Shown here piece by piece: positions 4,193-41,289 of a DNA stretch of 64,000 bases. The DNA is from a virus. The stretch is taken from positions 1 to 64,000 of IMG/VR virus record IMGVR_UViG_3300035698_011327; one strand, written 5' to 3'. Position 1 is the first letter of the stretch; every line of letters begins with the position of its first letter. The notes beneath the pieces are model-generated. The model had not been told where the DNA came from. It did not search any database and saw only the letters and a program-made list of their open reading frames with translations. Both the position numbers and the translations under genes were made by a program.

Positions 4193-4201
4193 AGGAAACC
4201 A

Positions 4202-4573
4202 ATGAGCATAATACTTGAAGATAGGATGGGACTACCACAGTTAAAGACAATCTCTGGATTCGTCGGTATCTGGAACCTATCAGAGGTATTAAACTTTGCT
4301 ATGATGTGGGGAAATGCTAATAACGTCACCGTCTCACCTCAATCAAAAGACATAAGGAGTGGTGCGTGGGGGTGCTTCGTAGCGATGACCGTTAGGATTA
4401 ACGACGAAATGGTTCAAAGGCAGTACGGACTTATTAAGTCTGCCACTGTTGAGGACTATATAAGCACCCTTATTGACGATGATTTGGTTATAGACAGCGT
4501 CAAAAGATCAAGAAAGCTTACCGTAGGTGAAGATGGGAGATTAAGCAGGAGAATCGATAAGGAGAATCTATGA
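4202..4573 (+). CDS. hypothetical protein with RRxD tag
   Basis: 123-aa ORF ending GRLSRRIDKENL. Confidence 0.7.
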   Translation: MSIILEDRMGLPQLKTISGFVGIWNLSEVLNFAMMWGNANNVTVSPQSKDIRSGAWGCFVAMTVRINDEMVQRQYGLIKSATVEDYISTLIDDDLVIDSVKRSRKLTVGEDGRLSRRIDKENL

Positions 4574-4770
4574 TTAAATGTCCGATGTGTAACGGTGAGG
4601 TAGATAAGATAATCTATTATGGGCTACCTCATAAATTCTGTAAAGACAGGGACTGTAACTGTATGTTTGGGTTCTTTGCTCTGTTTACTAAGTTCTTGCC
4701 GTTCAACGGGTGGGTAGTGGAGTACAAAAGCAACTACTTCGTAGCATTATTCTATTGGGTGAAAGGGTGA
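4570..4770 (+). CDS. small Cys-rich protein
   Basis: CPMC and CxxxxC motifs, ATGA overlap. Confidence 0.6.
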   Translation: MIKCPMCNGEVDKIIYYGLPHKFCKDRDCNCMFGFFALFTKFLPFNGWVVEYKSNYFVALFYWVKG

Positions 4771-4774
4771 TAAA

Positions 4775-4981
4775 ATGAAAGAAAAGATCAGCAACTCAGG
4801 ATTCAAAATATGTAGAAGGTGCGAGTATATCATGCTTGCTTCTGTCGAAGCAGAAGGCGCTGACGGTAACTGGATAGAAATCAAGTGGGCGCACTGTTCT
4901 CACGAAGGCGGGAGCGTGCCTATAGCTGTACTAAAAAACTGTCCTTTGCTGGGGTCGCACGTACCAGACTTTAAAGCATAA
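4775..4981 (+). CDS. small Cys-containing hypothetical protein
   Basis: CRRC motif, in-operon spacing. Confidence 0.55.
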   Translation: MKEKISNSGFKICRRCEYIMLASVEAEGADGNWIEIKWAHCSHEGGSVPIAVLKNCPLLGSHVPDFKA

Positions 4982-5128
4982 TACTTCGGATCGGAAAGGC
5001 GTGTAAGTGCCTGGATTTCATGAAAAGTTTCTTATGAGTAGCATAAAATAACCCTTTACTTTCAGTACCTTATATATTATCCTTATATAGTAGAAATATT
5101 ATGTACATAAAGGGGGGGGTGATTCTAA

Positions 5129-5320
5129 GTGTACGAGAAAATATGCGTTAGGTGTGAGGAGAGGCCAGTTAATATAGATGTCCGTGAGATAACGGGCAGA
5201 GATATTTGCGTCATATGCTGTATTAAAGGCTATAAGTTTGTGCTCGGCAAGGTATCGAGTGAAAATCGTGATCTACAGAAGATAGTGGATACCATGCGGA
5301 AGGGCGTCATAAAAGTCTGA
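5129..5320 (+). CDS. small zinc-finger-like protein
   Basis: CVRC and CVIC, RBS GGGGTGAT, TTTACT box upstream at 5055. Confidence 0.6.
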   Translation: MYEKICVRCEERPVNIDVREITGRDICVICCIKGYKFVLGKVSSENRDLQKIVDTMRKGVIKV

Positions 5321-5359
5321 GCTTAATGAAAAGTTTCTTCTGCCGTCATAAAATAAGCC

Positions 5360-5388
5360 TTTACTTCACACCCTAAAAAAGGTATAAT
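5360..5388 (+). promoter_or_regulatory. sigma70-type promoter driving the large non-coding unit
   Basis: TTTACT (5360-5365), 17-nt spacer, TATAAT (5383-5388), CATAAAATAA upstream. Confidence 0.85.
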
Positions 5389-5394
5389 TAGGTA

Positions 5395-6572
5395 GTTTGA
5401 AAGACCTAGGACAGGCCTAGGCTCAGGACAGGGAATAAGCGAAGTGCGGAGCACGTAACGCCTCCCTAAGTTTAACATACCGATCTTGAAGCCTTCGTCG
5501 GTGCGGAAATAACCGTATATGTTAGACGGAGAGGACAGCGGAGGGATTAACACCGTTAAGGTAGTAATCCTGTTCTGAAAAGAACTTAGAGCCACCGGGA
5601 GTAAAAGAAAAGCATAAGTCGGAAAGACTGCTTTACAGAACTAACGTCCTACCTACAGTAAACTCTTACTGCGTTGGTGAGGGCTAGAACCCCGTGTATT
5701 GTATCCTTAATCTATCGTCTTCCCGCAGCAATCGGCACTTCTCGAAAACGTCAGAAATAAAGAATATTTGCTGACGATATGGCGTAGGCTATCTAACCTG
5801 AGGCCCTTTATAAACCGTGAGTTAGAAGTCAGATTCAGTCCCAACGCCGGTAAGAAGAAGCCACTTCCATAAAGTCTTTTCAATATTCTATCTCATACTC
5901 TACTACTGCGACTTCATACGGACGAAAAGATGGCTCGGAAAGGGAGAGTGTTTCTACAGCGATAACTTCCGTCCTTGAGGCAATCTGGTTTCAAGGGTAA
6001 GGAAAACCGTAGTGAACGATTAGTCTGAGCGTTAAGCCTTTAAATGGGAAAGCCATTAGTAGGTGCCTAGACAGCACGAAGTGGTTAGTAGCTGCCTAAT
6101 ACGTTGGGCTATGGAAATCGCCTTTTAATGATAAAGCCATCGAAAGTTTTACTGGATGATCCATCTTTGATTCTTTGAGTCCTCGTACCTACCCGTTGTA
6201 ACAGAGGATGATCGGGATGCGTTCTTACGTTGGTAGTAAGAAGTCTGGGTGGAAATAAAGTTAAATAAAATTTCAGATTTAGGTCAAGACCAACCGAGAG
6301 GTGAGTCCCTATCAAGACATAGGGGGAGACTGGTAACAAAAATTAGTAGGGCTTGAAACGATGAAAGCATAACGTCGGTGAGAAAGAAGCCGATAGTGTT
6401 AATAACCGTATCAAGGAACCGCTGTAGGTGACATAAACACTCAAGCTTCTTAATTTTCCCTCCGGTACGCTGAAAAGCGTACCCTACACTGTAAAGTGTA
6501 GTCCTTTCAACGTAGCTGTAAAAGCTACGTGTTGGTGGTTGGGGCATCCTTCATTGGGTGCCCCAATTACTG
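5395..6572 (+). ncRNA. candidate large (~1.2 kb) structured non-coding RNA
   Basis: no + strand ORF of 60 aa or more behind a consensus promoter; many helices and GNRA-type hairpins, closing with a long GC-rich hairpin at 6534-6571. Confidence 0.65.
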
Positions 6573-6579
6573 CTTCTTG

Positions 6580-6710
6580 ACGGGTTAAATAGGCACAGGG
6601 GTCACACAATTTAGTGTGGATGCCCTAGCTCTGCCGTGCTCTCCTTAGCAACACCTTTCCAAAGTCGGCTTGCGGCTAGCTTCATATGCTCCTGTGCCTA
6701 TTTAACCTGT
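6580..6710 (+). other. long-stem RNA element (processing stem or small RNA)
   Basis: 22-nt arms ACGGGTTAAATAGGCACAGGGG / CTCCTGTGCCTATTTAACCTGT. Confidence 0.55.
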
Positions 6711-6729
6711 TAACCCATAGAAAAGGAGA

Positions 6730-7167
6730 GTGATTATGGAAAATGAAGCGAATGGATTCAAGAAAGAAATCGAGAACTATCAGTGTCCCGGTTGTATGTG
6801 CGGTTGTGACATAAGCTGCTTTGAGCCTAGTTTTCTAGGCGTAGGCTGTGGAAAGCACGTGCCTGGAACCCTTATTGTACCAGGGATAGGCAGAATATCT
6901 CTTGGTATGCCAAAAGGGTTCAACCGAATAGGGCCATTAGACACTAAAGATGGCAATATGAACCTGTATATCCTGCCACACCCCGATGAATTCGAATATG
7001 ATGACCTTAACGTTGTCGTGTGGAAACATCTGGATGAGCACGGGAACACATTAGCCCGTGGTATGACTCCACGGCTAAACCTGCCTTTCTTACACGTTCT
7101 TATTGGTGACTACATCGACGCTATTGGCGGCATCGATATAACATCTAAGCTAAAAGACCTTGACTAA
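6730..7167 (+). CDS. Cys-containing hypothetical protein
   Basis: CPGCMCGC motif, AAGGAG RBS. Confidence 0.75.
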   Translation: MIMENEANGFKKEIENYQCPGCMCGCDISCFEPSFLGVGCGKHVPGTLIVPGIGRISLGMPKGFNRIGPLDTKDGNMNLYILPHPDEFEYDDLNVVVWKHLDEHGNTLARGMTPRLNLPFLHVLIGDYIDAIGGIDITSKLKDLD

Positions 7168-7173
7168 AAGGAG

Positions 7174-7557
7174 GTGATTGAATTGAAAGAAGAATATACA
7201 GAGCTACGTCACGCAGCAGGGCTTCTTATGATCCTTGGACGGAGAAATGCTTGCCGGTACTGCCCGAAATTAATGATATCGAGTGGAACTGGAGAATCGT
7301 TTGAAGTCTGTAATCTTGATAGCGTTACAAGAAAGACGTGCGCATCGTTCATTGACCTCGACATTGTCCGTGAAGATAAATCGTTTTGTCCTTGTCACCA
7401 GTTAGGAGCTAAAGAAGTTATGAAGAGGACGTGGATTGCTCTTGAGGAGAAAGGCTATCTCGACAACTTTGAACCAGAAGATGAGCTTAATCCAGGTATC
7501 GATGACCCATTTAATACAGTCGAACTTATGGCTGGTGACGGCAACTACGGGAGATAA
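7174..7557 (+). CDS. Cys-rich protein, paralog of 8171-8437
   Basis: HA..LL..L...N.C..CP...CPC...TW.ALE.KGY shared with 8171-8437. Confidence 0.7.
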   Translation: MIELKEEYTELRHAAGLLMILGRRNACRYCPKLMISSGTGESFEVCNLDSVTRKTCASFIDLDIVREDKSFCPCHQLGAKEVMKRTWIALEEKGYLDNFEPEDELNPGIDDPFNTVELMAGDGNYGR

Positions 7558-7741
7558 TCTACAATGACTGACTCCGAGTTGGATCTATTGTATCTGAAGA
7601 AACGAGACGAAAGACTGAGTAAAAGCAGAGACTCTGTGGTCCTTGATAGGATCATAAAGTTTCTGTTTCCTTTCGCAATCGGCGTCATCCTTGGATACGG
7701 ATGGTGCTGGAACGTATTTAATTGAAAAGGAGGTGATTTAA

Positions 7742-14240: not shown

Positions 14241-14312
14241 TATAGCTTTACTTTCTCTCAGATCCATAGTATAGTTTGCTTGTCTGTAAAGCAAGTAAAC
14301 TATACTAAACAG

Positions 14313-26264: not shown

Positions 26265-26392
26265 TCCAGCAGTACCACTAAGGCATACATGCAAAAATAG
26301 CTCAATTGGTTGAGCATTAGACTCTTAATCTAACTGTTACGGGTTCAAGTCCCGTTTTTTATACCATACGGCCTTTATAACTCACTGCTGGA
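26265..26392 (+). ncRNA. Y-RNA-like module 2 enclosing a tRNA-Lys(CTT)-like cloverleaf
   Basis: closing stem TCCAGCAGT/ACTGCTGGA; cloverleaf 26291-26366 with weak A-U acceptor stem. Confidence 0.75.
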
Positions 26393-36374: not shown

Positions 36375-36677
36375 ATGATAGTTAACGGGAAAGAATATCC
36401 TCTATGGAGTCAATTTATAGAGAAAAAAGCAGACTTCATAGGGAAGAAACTTGTTTCTATTGATGAGGGTCAAGAAGCACAGACAATAGTGACAGATCTA
36501 ACATTAGAACCAAATGGTAAAGACTCTGCCATGTTCCGAGTACACGGCAAAGATTTCAATTGCGGTTTCGATGTTCATCATGGTGGTATATCTGGAGATG
36601 CTGAAGGAGTAGAACAAGGCTATATATCATTTTCATCTACATACTGTGGGACGTTTAGGATATACCATGCTAAATAA
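36375..36677 (+). CDS. hypothetical protein
   Basis: AAGGAG RBS, 100 aa. Confidence 0.7.
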   Translation: MIVNGKEYPLWSQFIEKKADFIGKKLVSIDEGQEAQTIVTDLTLEPNGKDSAMFRVHGKDFNCGFDVHHGGISGDAEGVEQGYISFSSTYCGTFRIYHAK

Positions 36678-39600
36678 AGATTTTTGTCACTTACATCTCC
36701 ATACACAATATTCACTTCTAGACGGTTTTGGCACAGCGGCTATGTATGCCAAAAGAGCATCTGAGTTAGGGTTTACTCATATGGCTATCACTGATCATGG
36801 AGGGGTTGATGGTGTTATAGAATTTCAAAAAGCCTGTAAAGAAGAAGGGATCAAAAGCATTATAGGCTGCGAGGGGTACATCGTACCTGATATTTCTGTT
36901 AAAGAGAAAGAAAAGAAGTACCACATTACACTACTTGTTAAGAATGAAGTAGGCTGGAAAAATCTCCTTCAGCTTCTTACCATAGCAAACATCCAAGGGT
37001 TCTACTATAAGCCACGGTTCGATCCACAAACCCTTCTAGACTATTGCGAAGGGCTTGTTGTGATGAGTGCGTGCGCTTCTACTTTCCTTAATATGGGGAA
37101 CGTAATTGAAAAACCCTCTAGACCTGCAAGGGGCAGAAGATTAGACATGGCCCCAACTTTAGATACGATGGGCATAGACTTGATGCTACAGCTTAAAGAG
37201 AGAACCGATGTAGCGATAGAGATCATGCCTCTTGATCTTAAAGAGCAGATAGAAGTGAACAAGATGTCGATAGAGATAGCTAAAGAGAATGATATAATGC
37301 TCGTTGCTACTAACGACTGTCATTATCCTTTGGCTGAGCACTCTAAGCTTCAAGAAGTTCTGCTATGTATGCAAACCAAATCAAAATGGTCTAACCCTGA
37401 TAGGTGGAAATTTGATATAGACGATCTATATCTAAAGACGGCTGATGAGATGATAGATTCGTTCGCTGAACAAGGCGTAGTTAGTCGTGAGGATGTCGGA
37501 GTAGCATTATTGAATACAATGACTATAGCGGAGCTATGTGACTTCGAAATAGAAGCAAGAGAACCAAACTTGCCCAGAGTCCACGTATCTAAGTATCCAG
37601 ATTTCAGCGAAGATGACCAGATTATAAGACTTGTCCTTGATGGCTTGGATAGCAGGGCTGAAGATCACGAGTGGATAAAGAACGATATAGCAGCATATCA
37701 AGAAAGAATAGAAGAAGAACTTGAGCAGATTATGCCAAAGTTCACAAGATACTTTCTTGTCGTGTGGGAGCTTGTACATTGGTGTGAAAAAGAGAAAATA
37801 ATGGTGGGGCCGGGGCGTGGATCTAGTGGAGGTTGCTTAGTTGCTTACTGCTTAGGGATAACGGACGTTGACCCTTTAAAGTACGACCTTGTATTCTCAA
37901 GGTTCATATCTCCAGGCAGAATCGATTTACCTGATATTGATATGGACTTCGAAGATAGAAGGCGAGAGGATGTCAAGAAGCATCTTGCCGATATCTACGG
38001 GAAGTGGAACGTCATAGAAGTCTCTACCTTCCTGAAAATGCACGGTAGAGGAGCAATAAGAGACGTCAGCAGAGTTTTCGATATACCATTATACGAAGTG
38101 AAGAAAGCAGCAGAATGTATCGTTACAAGATCGGGTGGTGATGTTCGGGCTGACTTTTCTATCGAAGATGCCTTCAACACATTTGAAGATGGGATAGCCT
38201 TTAAAGCAAAATACCCAGAAGTGACTAAGATGGCTATGTCTTTTGAAGGACAGATAAAATCTGCTGGTAGACATGCCGCAGCTACGTGCGTATCAGAGAC
38301 AGACTTAAGGTTAGGAGAAAATGCTAATTTTGTAGTCAGGAATAAAAAGAATGTCTGTAACTGGGCCAAAGAAGATGCTGAATATATGGGCCTAATGAAG
38401 CTTGATATATTAGGGCTGAACTCTTTGACGATCTTGAGTGAAACAAAAGACCTTGTTAAGGATAGGCACGGGATAAATATAAACTACAATCTCATAGACT
38501 TGGACGATGAGAGATTGTATGTAGAGTTCATAGCTGGGAATACGATAGGCATATTCCAGTTTAGCTCTAATAGCATGATGAAGTTATGTCGAGATATCAA
38601 AGGAGATTGTTTCGATGAAGTTGTAGCCCTCAATGCCCTTCATAGGCCTGGTGCTCTACGAAGTGGTTTTACGCAAATATATAGAGATCGTAAATTTGGC
38701 GCTCAAGACGTTGAGTATGCCCACCCGTGGATAGAAGGGATAACCAAGGATACCCAAGGTCTGATCATCTATCAAGAGCAAGCGATGCGCTTGATGTATG
38801 AGCTCGGTGGACTTACTTGGAAGACCGCAGACACTATCCGTAAGGTAATCAGTAAATCGAAGGGCGTTGAGGAATTCATGAAGTTCGAACAGCAATTTAT
38901 AGATGGCTGTAAAGAACGGGATACCCTTAATAAAGCAGAAGCTATGATAGTTTTCGGTGAGCTTAAGAATATGGGCAGCTATAGTTTTAATAAGTGTTTA
39001 CGGGGGGTTACGTCCCTTATAAGATCTGCTGCCGGGAAGCATAGCAAAAAACAAGAGATAACTGTTGAAGAATTATACAAGAGATGGAACTCTAAAGCTC
39101 AAGTAGGGACAAAATACAGAGACCCAAAAAGGGGTCTAAAGATTATGCAAGTTGATCCTGATGGCAGAGTAAGGCCAGCAAAAATAAAGGCTATCCACAG
39201 GAACGGAACAAGAAGGACAATAGCAAGGATAACGACTGAGTCTGGCAAGCAGATAGACGCTACGATGAATCATAGGTTCCTCACAGATAAAGGATACGTT
39301 TTGGTTGGAGAGCTTAAAGTTGGCGATCTTATGGCTATAATGGGAGAAAAAGAAGAACATATTAAAAAGGGAGAGCCGCACAACCAAAAAACTACATATG
39401 ATGGATGTGGATTTCAAAAGGGAAAAGATAACATATCTTATATAGATGGCAGAGCTAAATATTTCAAAGAAGGGAAGAAAGCAGTAATAAAAAGAGCAGA
39501 TGGGAAATGTGAAAATTGTAAAATAGAGATAGAGGGTGTGTGTGAATGCTGCCACCAGAAAATAAAATATGGTAGGCCTGAGATAGCCCACATTGAAAAT

Positions 39601-41289
39601 ATAGAGCAATGCGATTTTGATTATTCTATTTATCACTCACATAAAAATTTAAAATATTTGTGTAACCCGTGTCATAAAAAACTTGATTATAAAAAAGGTG
39701 AAAGAAAAGTAAGGCACTCTATTGGTAAACCAGTAGCACTTGATCCTATAACGTCGATAGAGATAGTTAAATGTGGAGAATATGTTTACGATGTAGAGAT
39801 GGATACAGAGCAACACAACTTTATAGCAAACGGATTTGTATCTCACAATAGCCACGCTGTCGAGTACGGAATGATAGCAGTCTGGATGATGTACTTAAAG
39901 ATAAACTATCCAGTCGAATTTATGGCAACTCTTTTATCTTATGGGCCGGCTGGAAAGAAACACGAGCTTATAAATGAAGCCAAAAGATTGGGTGTCAATA
40001 TACTCTTACCTGATATTAATCTTTCTACAGCTAAAAAGTGGAAGATTGACGACGATGGCAATCTACTGTCACCGTTCTTAGAGATTAAGGGTATAGGGGA
40101 GGTAGCCGCAACCGAGATCATTCGTTGCAGAGACGATGCAGGCCCTTACAAAAGCCCTTCCGACCTAGAGTCTAGAGTCCCTAAGAGAAAAGTCAATGTA
40201 AAAGTCCGTAGGCTACTAGAAGAAACAAAAGCATATGAGTCTCCTGAGAGTAAAACTTTCTTACCTGAAGAGGAACTTGAAGCCTTATCTCAATATTTCG
40301 ATTTCGAATTATCAAATGATCCTTTATATAGGTTTAGAGGGATATTCAAAATCCTCGACCAGAGCCTTGGGTTCATCAACCTTTGCGATTCTATTCCGAT
40401 GGGGAATGAGCTTGGATATTATTATGGTAGGATGGAAAGTCTAAAGGTTGGGTATAGGCAAGCCGTTAAGCAGACGAGCAACAGTAGCGACTTTGGCTCT
40501 CTTGGTGGAGTATACGGCCACCTTAAAGACGATACAGATTTCAAGATGCTTATCTTTGGTAACCAGATTTACGATGAGAAGAAAAGTATAGTAGAGCATT
40601 GTGAAGGGCAAGCCATAATAACTCTTGCTAATAACACGGATGATAAAGAAGCCTTGAAGACTCAGGCTGCTTGGTTTAGCGACGAACTCACGTCAGGTAA
40701 TCTTGAGGGTTTAGATGCTAAACTCGGCAAAGAAAGCGAACCTCCGGCAGATTTAAGCATCATCAACGATTGCGATGCTTGTGAGTTACGTGAAGAATGT
40801 GAGCGGCCAACCTTCCCTAAGCAAGGCGAATGTAACATAATGATAGTTGGAGAGATGCCAACTAAAGCAGACAATGATAGCGGGTATGTTTTCTGCGGTA
40901 GGCCAGCAGAAGTCCTATTCAGAAAGCTGGATAGCTATGGCCTAGACAGGGAGATGTTCTATCTTACGAACGTCATAAAATGCTGGCCAAGTAGAACCAA
41001 AAAGCCTAAAAAGAAACACGTCAATGCTTGTAAAAGAATTTTATCTGAAGAGATAGCAGTAGCAAAACCATTCTTGGTCCTGTCTCTTGGTAATCTCGGT
41101 AGGCAGTTCTTTGATGGAGAAGAAGCCGGCATCATTGCTGTAAACGGAACAACTAAATGGAATATGGATCATAACTGCTGGGTAACATATTCTATAAGCC
41201 CGTCAATGGTAGCATATAGTGAAGAGAATATGCCGCTACTTGACGCCTCAATAGCAGAATTTGCTAACAAGGTATCTATTTTATTCTGA
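36667..41289 (+). CDS. dnaE: DNA polymerase III alpha subunit with intein and C-terminal family-4 UDG-like domain
   Basis: HLHLHTQYSLLDG (PHP), GPGRGSSGG, PDIDMDF, KLDILGL, FNK-intein-SH; C-terminal GEMP, LTNVIKCWP, LSLG. Confidence 0.95.
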   Translation: MLNKDFCHLHLHTQYSLLDGFGTAAMYAKRASELGFTHMAITDHGGVDGVIEFQKACKEEGIKSIIGCEGYIVPDISVKEKEKKYHITLLVKNEVGWKNLLQLLTIANIQGFYYKPRFDPQTLLDYCEGLVVMSACASTFLNMGNVIEKPSRPARGRRLDMAPTLDTMGIDLMLQLKERTDVAIEIMPLDLKEQIEVNKMSIEIAKENDIMLVATNDCHYPLAEHSKLQEVLLCMQTKSKWSNPDRWKFDIDDLYLKTADEMIDSFAEQGVVSREDVGVALLNTMTIAELCDFEIEAREPNLPRVHVSKYPDFSEDDQIIRLVLDGLDSRAEDHEWIKNDIAAYQERIEEELEQIMPKFTRYFLVVWELVHWCEKEKIMVGPGRGSSGGCLVAYCLGITDVDPLKYDLVFSRFISPGRIDLPDIDMDFEDRRREDVKKHLADIYGKWNVIEVSTFLKMHGRGAIRDVSRVFDIPLYEVKKAAECIVTRSGGDVRADFSIEDAFNTFEDGIAFKAKYPEVTKMAMSFEGQIKSAGRHAAATCVSETDLRLGENANFVVRNKKNVCNWAKEDAEYMGLMKLDILGLNSLTILSETKDLVKDRHGININYNLIDLDDERLYVEFIAGNTIGIFQFSSNSMMKLCRDIKGDCFDEVVALNALHRPGALRSGFTQIYRDRKFGAQDVEYAHPWIEGITKDTQGLIIYQEQAMRLMYELGGLTWKTADTIRKVISKSKGVEEFMKFEQQFIDGCKERDTLNKAEAMIVFGELKNMGSYSFNKCLRGVTSLIRSAAGKHSKKQEITVEELYKRWNSKAQVGTKYRDPKRGLKIMQVDPDGRVRPAKIKAIHRNGTRRTIARITTESGKQIDATMNHRFLTDKGYVLVGELKVGDLMAIMGEKEEHIKKGEPHNQKTTYDGCGFQKGKDNISYIDGRAKYFKEGKKAVIKRADGKCENCKIEIEGVCECCHQKIKYGRPEIAHIENIEQCDFDYSIYHSHKNLKYLCNPCHKKLDYKKGERKVRHSIGKPVALDPITSIEIVKCGEYVYDVEMDTEQHNFIANGFVSHNSHAVEYGMIAVWMMYLKINYPVEFMATLLSYGPAGKKHELINEAKRLGVNILLPDINLSTAKKWKIDDDGNLLSPFLEIKGIGEVAATEIIRCRDDAGPYKSPSDLESRVPKRKVNVKVRRLLEETKAYESPESKTFLPEEELEALSQYFDFELSNDPLYRFRGIFKILDQSLGFINLCDSIPMGNELGYYYGRMESLKVGYRQAVKQTSNSSDFGSLGGVYGHLKDDTDFKMLIFGNQIYDEKKSIVEHCEGQAIITLANNTDDKEALKTQAAWFSDELTSGNLEGLDAKLGKESEPPADLSIINDCDACELREECERPTFPKQGECNIMIVGEMPTKADNDSGYVFCGRPAEVLFRKLDSYGLDREMFYLTNVIKCWPSRTKKPKKKHVNACKRILSEEIAVAKPFLVLSLGNLGRQFFDGEEAGIIAVNGTTKWNMDHNCWVTYSISPSMVAYSEENMPLLDASIAEFANKVSILF
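38995..39849 (+). mobile_element. 285-aa intein with HNH-type endonuclease in DnaE
   Basis: begins CLRG after FNK, block-B TMNHRF, ends VYDVEM...HNFIANGFVSHN before Ser; internal CENC...EIAHI...NLKYLCNPCH. Confidence 0.9.

Follow-up and report, generated by a model that had tools for sequence, protein, structure and literature searches.

We report that positions 5321–6735 of an uncultivated salt-lake phage lack protein-coding capacity, contain a promoter of a type that recurs in the same genome, close with a strongly structured hairpin block, belong to no known RNA family and are partly conserved at the nucleotide level in a diverged relative, with substitutions of the kind expected for RNA. 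All positions refer to the window analysed here, which covers the initial 64 kb of a linear, 76,292-bp IMG/VR virus record with an estimated completeness of 78%. Taken together, the findings are consistent with an early transcription unit that is non-coding and acts at the RNA level. Our leading interpretation, held tentatively and at a little under an even chance, is that the stretch encodes a predicted orphan, stand-alone long non-coding early phage RNA with structured ends (Table 1).

Coding capacity and promoter

The stretch is bounded by a 63-amino-acid (aa) gene that stops at 5320 and a 143-aa gene that starts at 6736, and it holds no open reading frame (ORF) of at least 60 aa on the + strand. 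Over these 1,415 nucleotides (nt), the three + frames contain 33, 32 and 37 stops, with a mean spacing of 43 nt in each, and TAA, TAG and TGA are mixed in every frame; therefore, no stop-codon reassignment opens a frame, and a recoded gene was rejected on the frequency of all three stop types in all + frames. Among + ORFs with a start codon, the longest reach 34–35 aa; they open with TTG or GTG and lack a good ribosome-binding site. On the − strand, the stop-free runs are 105, 88 and 77 codons long; in a search of 5.8 billion proteins, the 88-aa frame returned no candidate relative and the 105-aa frame matched only its own called product. Translated comparison (tblastx) against 43 loci yielded the flanking gene as its sole match and no gene remnants within the stretch. 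Judged by its frames and by these searches, 5321–6735 is non-coding.

The promoter at 5360–5388 shares the top match score of the first 20 kb of the window. Its form, TTTACT-N17-TATART, is found four times in 64 kb (122–150, 910–938, 5360–5388 and 14247–14275), all on the + strand, against a chance expectation of 1.4, and 7 of 100 shuffles reach four. All four sites precede genes or this stretch, each with R-G ahead of the −10 hexamer, and the sites at 5360 and 910 extend their similarity to CATAAAATAA upstream of the −35 hexamer. The other members lie within ~100 nt of their genes. These sites look like the phage's early promoter family, and 5360–5388 is probably a real promoter, the spacing of which would place the start of transcription at ~5394–5395. 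The first-pass annotation of this DNA had proposed a consensus promoter, a + strand empty of 60-aa ORFs and a non-coding, promoter-led unit, and on these three points it was borne out: the promoter by its score, its rank and its four-member family, the empty + strand by the absence of such frames throughout 5321–6735, and the unit, as an interpretation, with support from stops in every frame and the lack of − strand protein relatives.

Table 1 Predicted and observed features of the stretch and its immediate flanks, in window positions (bp, base pairs; MFE, minimum free energy; nt, nucleotides; tmRNA, transfer-messenger RNA).
Feature	Position	Strand	Description
Putative sigma-70-type early promoter	5360..5388	+	TTTACT-17-TATAAT with CATAAAATAA block upstream; 10 of 12 consensus positions
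Untranslatable body of the predicted transcript	5395..6572	+	~1.18 kb; no ORF of at least 60 aa, no Rfam match at E ≤ 10, no tRNA or tmRNA
5′-proximal hairpin	5405..5421	+	CCUAGG-ACAGG-CCUAGG; ~10 nt from the predicted start; in MFE and centroid folds
Three-way branched domain	5459..5540	+	GUUUAACAU/AUGUUAGAC enclosing ACCGAU/GUCGGU and GCGG/CCGU; in MFE and centroid folds
C-rich, G-poor tract	5840..5919	+	C 24, G 9; rut-like composition; poorly structured
Conserved block (best)	5954..6004	+	2 differences in 51 nt (96% identity), run X9; contains hairpin CCUUGA/UCAAGG
Conserved block	6092..6161	+	11 differences in 70 nt (84%); runs X2 and X9
Conserved block	6345..6424	+	15 differences and two 1-nt indels in 80 nt (81%); contains hairpin 6374–6378/6390–6394
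Cassette of three perfect hairpins	6464..6530	+	H1 6464–6483, H2 6484–6501, H3 6510–6530
H4, terminator-like hairpin	6534..6571	+	GC-rich, 15–16 bp, core 6539–6549/6556–6566, then UUACUGCUUCUUG
H5, long hairpin	6577..6713	+	137 nt; branched insert of 91 nt enclosed by 23-nt arms with 91% complementarity; MFE fold pairs ~26 positions

Structure and partial conservation

To quantify folding, we expressed the MFE of each segment as a z score against dinucleotide shuffles. The 3′ end stands out: 6460–6579 reaches z −13.0 on the + strand versus −7.3 on the − strand, with G-U pairs among its helices, and 6440–6745 reaches z −13.2, the structured block extending to 6713, beyond the end at 6572 that had first been annotated. 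At its core lie H1 (GGUACGCU-GAAA-AGCGUACC), H2 (CUACACU-GUAA-AGUGUAG) and H3 (ACGUAGCU-GUAAA-AGCUACGU). Among the 37 perfect hairpins of at least 7 bp in 64 kb, these three alone are adjacent and alone have G..A (GNRA-type) loops, a listing that upholds the three neighbouring perfect hairpins of the first-pass annotation. They share the top CU-G(A/U)AA(A)-AG, that is, the loop form and the first two pairs outward (U-A and C-G), whereas their outer five to six pairs differ on both sides yet are all Watson–Crick, so that paralogous hairpins covary among themselves. A protein-binding DNA palindrome keeps its half-sites; conserved tops on variable but paired stems therefore fit selection on an RNA (or single-stranded) hairpin and not on a DNA operator.

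Two further hairpins follow the cassette. H4 has G-U pairs specific to the + strand; examined as an intrinsic terminator, it has a tail, UUACUGCU, without a proper U run and was uncalled by the terminator scan. H5, which lies outside the coordinates first annotated, ends 7 nt upstream of the ribosome-binding site AAGGAGAG (6723–6730) of gene 6736–7167 and could be either a hairpin for RNase III-type processing or an inserted miniature inverted-repeat element.

The remainder of the stretch folds far less distinctively. Over 5395–6300, z is +0.26 on the + strand and −0.78 on the − strand; taken by segment, 5395–5700 (306 nt) is mildly structured at z −2.2, with nearby coding windows reaching −4, 5700–6280 scores +1.0 (82 of 100 shuffles fold equally well or better), and 6280–6460 scores −1.1. 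Heavy structure, as first described for the whole feature, thus holds for ~250–300 nt at the 3′ end (robustly for ~6460–6713) and fails elsewhere. Every helix listed in support of it is present in the sequence, and most are no more than chance yields. Near the 5′ end, the three-way domain has G-U pairs that are C-A mismatches on the − strand. In addition, UUGAAAG (5397–5403), 2–8 nt from the predicted start, perfectly complements CUUUCAA (6504–6510) in the spacer between H2 and H3; this pairing, noticed post hoc, is in the MFE fold of the full-length molecule and may form an end-to-end closing helix.

The middle of the stretch is marked by composition and repeats. Ranked by C minus G over 51 kb of + strand, the C-rich tract falls within the top six windows, and 5800–5919 is less structured than its shuffles (z +2.1). 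Elsewhere, the + strand reaches its C-rich, G-poor extreme at 1754–1927, in a non-coding block of ~1 kb, where two windows of 80 nt (C 29/G 6 and C 25/G 6) rank above all others. AACCGU (four times), UUAGUAG (three) and AGGACAG (three) are over-represented words in the stretch. Two pairs of short direct repeats, 6036–6056/6120–6140 (GCCUUUAAAUGGGAAAGCCAU versus GCCUUUUAAUGAUAAAGCCAU) and 6056–6069/6085–6098 (UUAGUAGGUGCCUA versus UUAGUAGCUGCCUA), have first copies that abut at 6056, and might reflect duplication of a sub-domain or repetition of a binding site; the repeat listing shows no iterons or longer direct repeats. Separately, 5938–5953 (GAAAGGGAGAGUGUUU) copies the ribosome-binding region of gene 6736 at 6720–6735 (GAAAAGGAGAGUGAUU) with 88% identity and is followed by no start codon; it may be left over from a lost gene start or may mimic a ribosome-binding site. 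A sponge for CsrA-type proteins was rejected on the count of GGA (23 seen, 22 expected), and an antisense regulator of phage genes on finding only chance matches of 11–13 nt to the rest of the 76-kb genome, which contains no extended sense or antisense match to the stretch.

We next consider conservation. Logan contigs of four salt-lake runs were aligned on 4200–7600, revealing window-type contigs with zero differences alongside a diverged relative (runs X2, X8 and X9) that co-occurs with the phage in the same salt-lake samples. The relative is represented by one low-depth contig per run, and gaps in contig cover prove nothing. It aligns at 80–96% identity in six blocks (4675–4711, 5047–5090, 5954–6004, 6092–6161, 6345–6424 and 6886–6920), with flanks too different to align. 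Relative-type pieces in the flanking genes are only 35–44 nt long; therefore, it is the non-coding stretch that contains the longest conserved pieces of these 3.4 kb. In run X2, a 356-nt contig of depth 3 matches both 6092–6161 and 6345–6424, with 176 other letters replacing the 183 nt between them, and loose contig ends look homologous but contain indels. The relative's indels are not multiples of three, which rules out coding.

Within the third conserved block, the 5-bp hairpin at 6374–6378/6390–6394, present in both MFE and centroid folds, changes in the relative from U-A to C-G, from G-C to A-U and from G-U to A-U with no pair broken, while 5 of the 11 loop positions also change. This substitution pattern fits an RNA helix. 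Covariation across homologues consists of two compensatory pairs and one G-U to A-U change, in one hairpin of one partial relative. The view, already put forward at first pass, that the unit acts at the RNA level gains support from the non-triplet indels, the compensatory changes, the loop-conserved but stem-variable hairpins and the G-U pairs confined to the + strand.

Known RNA families, homologues and genomic setting

To place the stretch among described RNAs, we searched the whole window with cmscan against 4,227 Rfam families, which at the gathering score returned only eight transfer RNAs (tRNAs). With permissive filters and an expectation value (E) of up to 10, positions 5200–6800 gave a single row, a chance match to a long non-coding RNA (E 3.6) over the promoter, and nothing within 5395–6572; ARAGORN found no tRNA or tmRNA in 5300–6800. 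GOLLD was rejected because its covariance model is unmatched even at E ≤ 10 and the stretch is not tRNA-adjacent (nearest tRNA at 26291), and ROOL because its model is unmatched at the gathering score and at E ≤ 10. OLE, HEARO, raiA, RNase P, tmRNA and group I and group II introns likewise have no Rfam match, and no split host gene points to an intron: both flanking genes are complete, the ORF upstream ending at 5320 and the downstream protein having full-length homologues of ~138 aa. The family search called for in the first-pass annotation thus lends no support to membership of GOLLD, ROOL or any other Rfam family.

Homologue searches were similarly empty. Nucleotide comparison (blastn) of the stretch with 50,697 phage records revealed no homologue; the locus and whole record of a phage sharing the neighbouring gene contain no DNA resembling it, and the whole records of 23 further phages with that gene contain only 15–35-nt matches (E 0.02–1). 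In IMG/VR, scans with a degenerate pattern and with an exact 20-mer of the relative were empty or gave chance matches, and the same 20-mer found one unrelated contig (L027) among JGI metagenome contigs. Pseudo-protein scans with the stop-free frames of the stretch were empty or at chance in IMG/VR and gave one GC-rich chance match (L044) in GTDB, while all eight IMG/VR matches to a gapped pattern of the three loops are coding AEK-type repeats. The homologue search proposed at first pass thus produced no full-length homologue in phage, IMG/VR, metagenome or genome collections, with pattern or pseudo-protein scans in the last three, and the suggestion of a new or extended RNA class is unsupported, no second full-length member having been found for covariation analysis.

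The closest precedents come from lytic phages. In Vibrio phage ICP1, an ORF-less gap of ~1 kb separating gp139 from gp140 gives rise to the most abundant transcript, of ~800 nt (PMC7567579), and phage K has long non-coding RNAs (PMC9241854). The present stretch resembles these in being ~1 kb long and ORF-less in a gene-dense phage genome with its own (predicted) promoter. It differs in being known from DNA alone, whereas those RNAs were seen by RNA sequencing, in its place in the early region, immediately downstream of an early promoter, and in resembling no record of the phage collection at the sequence level. The public sequencing runs that contain it are all labelled salt lake metagenome, with no RNA run among them. 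GOLLD and ROOL are large ornate RNAs, often found in phages and near tRNA genes. With them, the stretch shares size class (several hundred to ~1,000 nt), phage setting, lack of coding and GNRA-type loops; unlike them, it leaves their models unmatched, is remote from the nearest tRNA and has no excess folding energy over most of its length. A phage long non-coding transcript is thus a kind already known, and this stretch is a real, well-delimited orphan outside the described RNA families.

The surrounding genome encodes a family-A-type phage DNA polymerase, a UvsX-like recombinase, an SbcC-like nuclease, tail-fibre-like proteins and the eight tRNAs. Its 812-aa tail protein has no match in the 50,697 phage records, and a DNA polymerase query in IMG/VR returned no close relative of the phage, which is an uncultivated salt-lake lineage without close relatives in the collections searched. 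The polymerase ORF (36646–41289) is 1,547 aa long, and its residues ~850–1080 match an HNH endonuclease and unrelated phage families rather than polymerase, which suggests an intein or homing-endonuclease insertion.

The 143-aa protein of the downstream gene (6736–7167) belongs to a widespread phage family of unassigned function, with 142 relatives at 37–56% identity, and occurs in 24 IMG/VR records of 15–363 kb. The family has 22 invariant columns, including Cys17, Cys20 and Cys38, with Cys28 and His41 nearly invariant. It matches no Pfam or PHROG family, and at E ≤ 0.001 no PDB fold resembles its AlphaFold model (predicted local distance difference test score 82), which hence gives no clue to the RNA. 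A conserved leader of this gene family was rejected: in the 220 nt upstream of 23 homologues, z ranges from −3.8 to +2.7 without trend, and none of these 23 loci carries DNA like the stretch.

Competing readings and meaning

In the reading we favour, the host-type early promoter at 5360–5388 would fire into ~1.15 kb of untranslatable RNA that carries, in order, a small 5′ hairpin, the three-way domain, a poorly structured, fast-evolving middle with a few conserved blocks, H1–H3 and H4. The 3′ hairpin cassette would block 3′ exonucleases and would pause or stop the polymerase, and H1–H3 may present three copies of one protein- or RNA-docking loop. Transcription, both transcript ends, stability, processing and any cellular target are predictions of this reading. 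H5 would separate the RNA from the next messenger RNA (mRNA) by double-strand-specific cleavage. RNase III cleaves long double-stranded stems in the early transcripts of T7 and lambda, and H5 resembles those hairpins in being a near-perfect 23–26-bp stem between upstream RNA and the next ribosome-binding site; cleavage of H5 is only predicted, and the element may equally be a miniature inverted-repeat insertion. We favour a stand-alone RNA on three grounds. In lytic phages, of which ICP1 and phage K are examples, ~1-kb ORF-less spaces equipped with a promoter have proved to yield abundant, discrete RNAs; the unit combines a 5′ hairpin and a possible closing helix with stable hairpins stacked at its 3′ end, an architecture frequent among stable RNAs; and internal blocks are conserved at the nucleotide level.

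Several findings weigh against this reading. The promoter scan reveals no match between 6572 and 6736, which favours an untranslated leader instead, and H4, having no proper U run and going uncalled by the scan, may let the RNA run on into gene 6736. Moreover, ~750 nt (5700–6460) fold no better than shuffles, and the 5′ part falls short of what an ornate RNA would be expected to reach. Finally, no full-length homologue was found, covariation comes from one hairpin in one depth-3 contig, and by a rough estimate the result for that hairpin alone has a chance probability of ~0.05–0.1.

The main competitor, which we consider rather unlikely, is that the 5360 promoter serves gene 6736 and the genes that follow through a long regulatory leader, a 1.3-kb untranslated timing device. 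In such a leader, the C-rich tract, unstructured and extreme in composition, would invite Rho-dependent termination, the three boxB-like hairpins would recruit a phage factor conferring termination resistance on the polymerase, and RNase III would cut H5, a helix long enough for the enzyme and placed just before the ribosome-binding site, to free or activate the downstream mRNA. The missing second promoter and the non-canonical H4 both favour this arrangement, as does the apparent resemblance of the hairpin tops CU-GAAA-AG and CU-GUAAA-AG to boxB. In lambda, the boxB top is CU-GAAAA-AG and a nut site comprises boxA and boxB. Set beside that consensus, the cassette looks similar in its short hairpins, U-A closing pair and G-A-A-A-type loop, and in its position after an early promoter and before a terminator-like hairpin. 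It differs in having three hairpins with 7–8-bp stems, where lambda has one of 5 bp, and in lying 1.07 kb from the promoter. Beyond the boxB-like loop form, no boxA-like element was seen by eye near the hairpins (no pattern search was made for boxA), and no N-like arginine-rich protein was identified nearby, the neighbours all being of unknown family. A 1.3-kb leader would also be very costly in a gene-dense phage whose sister promoters sit so close to their genes, no consistently structured leader precedes the downstream gene's homologues in 23 other phages, and a timing device leaves the conserved internal blocks unexplained.

A more ambitious version of the stand-alone RNA, which we regard as unlikely, is the first member, of ~1.15 kb, of a new class of giant phage RNAs. 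Here the helix 5397–5403/6504–6510, joining the extreme 5′ end to the one spacer of the 3′ cassette that is single-stranded, would close the molecule, the three blocks 5954–6004, 6092–6161 and 6345–6424 would form its core, and the loops of H1–H3 would serve intra- or intermolecular assembly or the docking of a phage protein. An ornate giant RNA is unsupported by the folding statistics: when folding energy below that of shuffles was sought along the molecule, the 3′ cassette alone reached z −13.

Less probable still is a spacer with no RNA function, made of decayed genes or of a DNA-level element (an origin, a recombination hotspot or an inverted-repeat landing pad), in which function would be confined to the hairpin cluster, which could serve upstream genes as a terminator or processing block. 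Most of the length has no excess structure, no collection searched yielded a homologue, and the outright replacement of 183 nt in the relative fits weak constraint; in addition, 6577–6713 is shaped like a miniature inverted-repeat element, and the start-less ribosome-binding copy at 5938–5953 is a possible gene remnant. Against this, the stretch lies straight in the path of a consensus promoter that belongs to the phage's own family, neither iterons nor longer direct repeats nor remnant protein similarity were found in it, and blocks of 81–96% identity with compensatory changes persist while the relative's flanking genes align only in short pieces. Several very small proteins or leader peptides below the ORF cut-off are highly improbable: phage early regions abound in tiny genes, and a 13-codon ORF (ATG at 6217–6219) has GAGGA 8 nt upstream of its start, but stops interrupt every + frame at short intervals, the longest + ORFs have TTG or GTG starts with poor ribosome-binding sites, and the relative's indels break the triplet frame.

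To our knowledge, long ORF-less transcripts are emerging among the most abundant RNAs of lytic phages, and we know of none with an established function. If the stretch gives rise to a free RNA, it would add another long ORF-less phage transcript, from a lineage without close relatives in the collections searched. As a 1.3-kb timing leader instead, it would stand out among phage attenuators for its length. Its present value is that of a well-delimited lead rather than a discovery: with its clean promoter and distinctive 3′ cassette, it would be simple to express, probe and image as a construct, and the three loop-identical hairpins offer a concrete handle for pull-downs.

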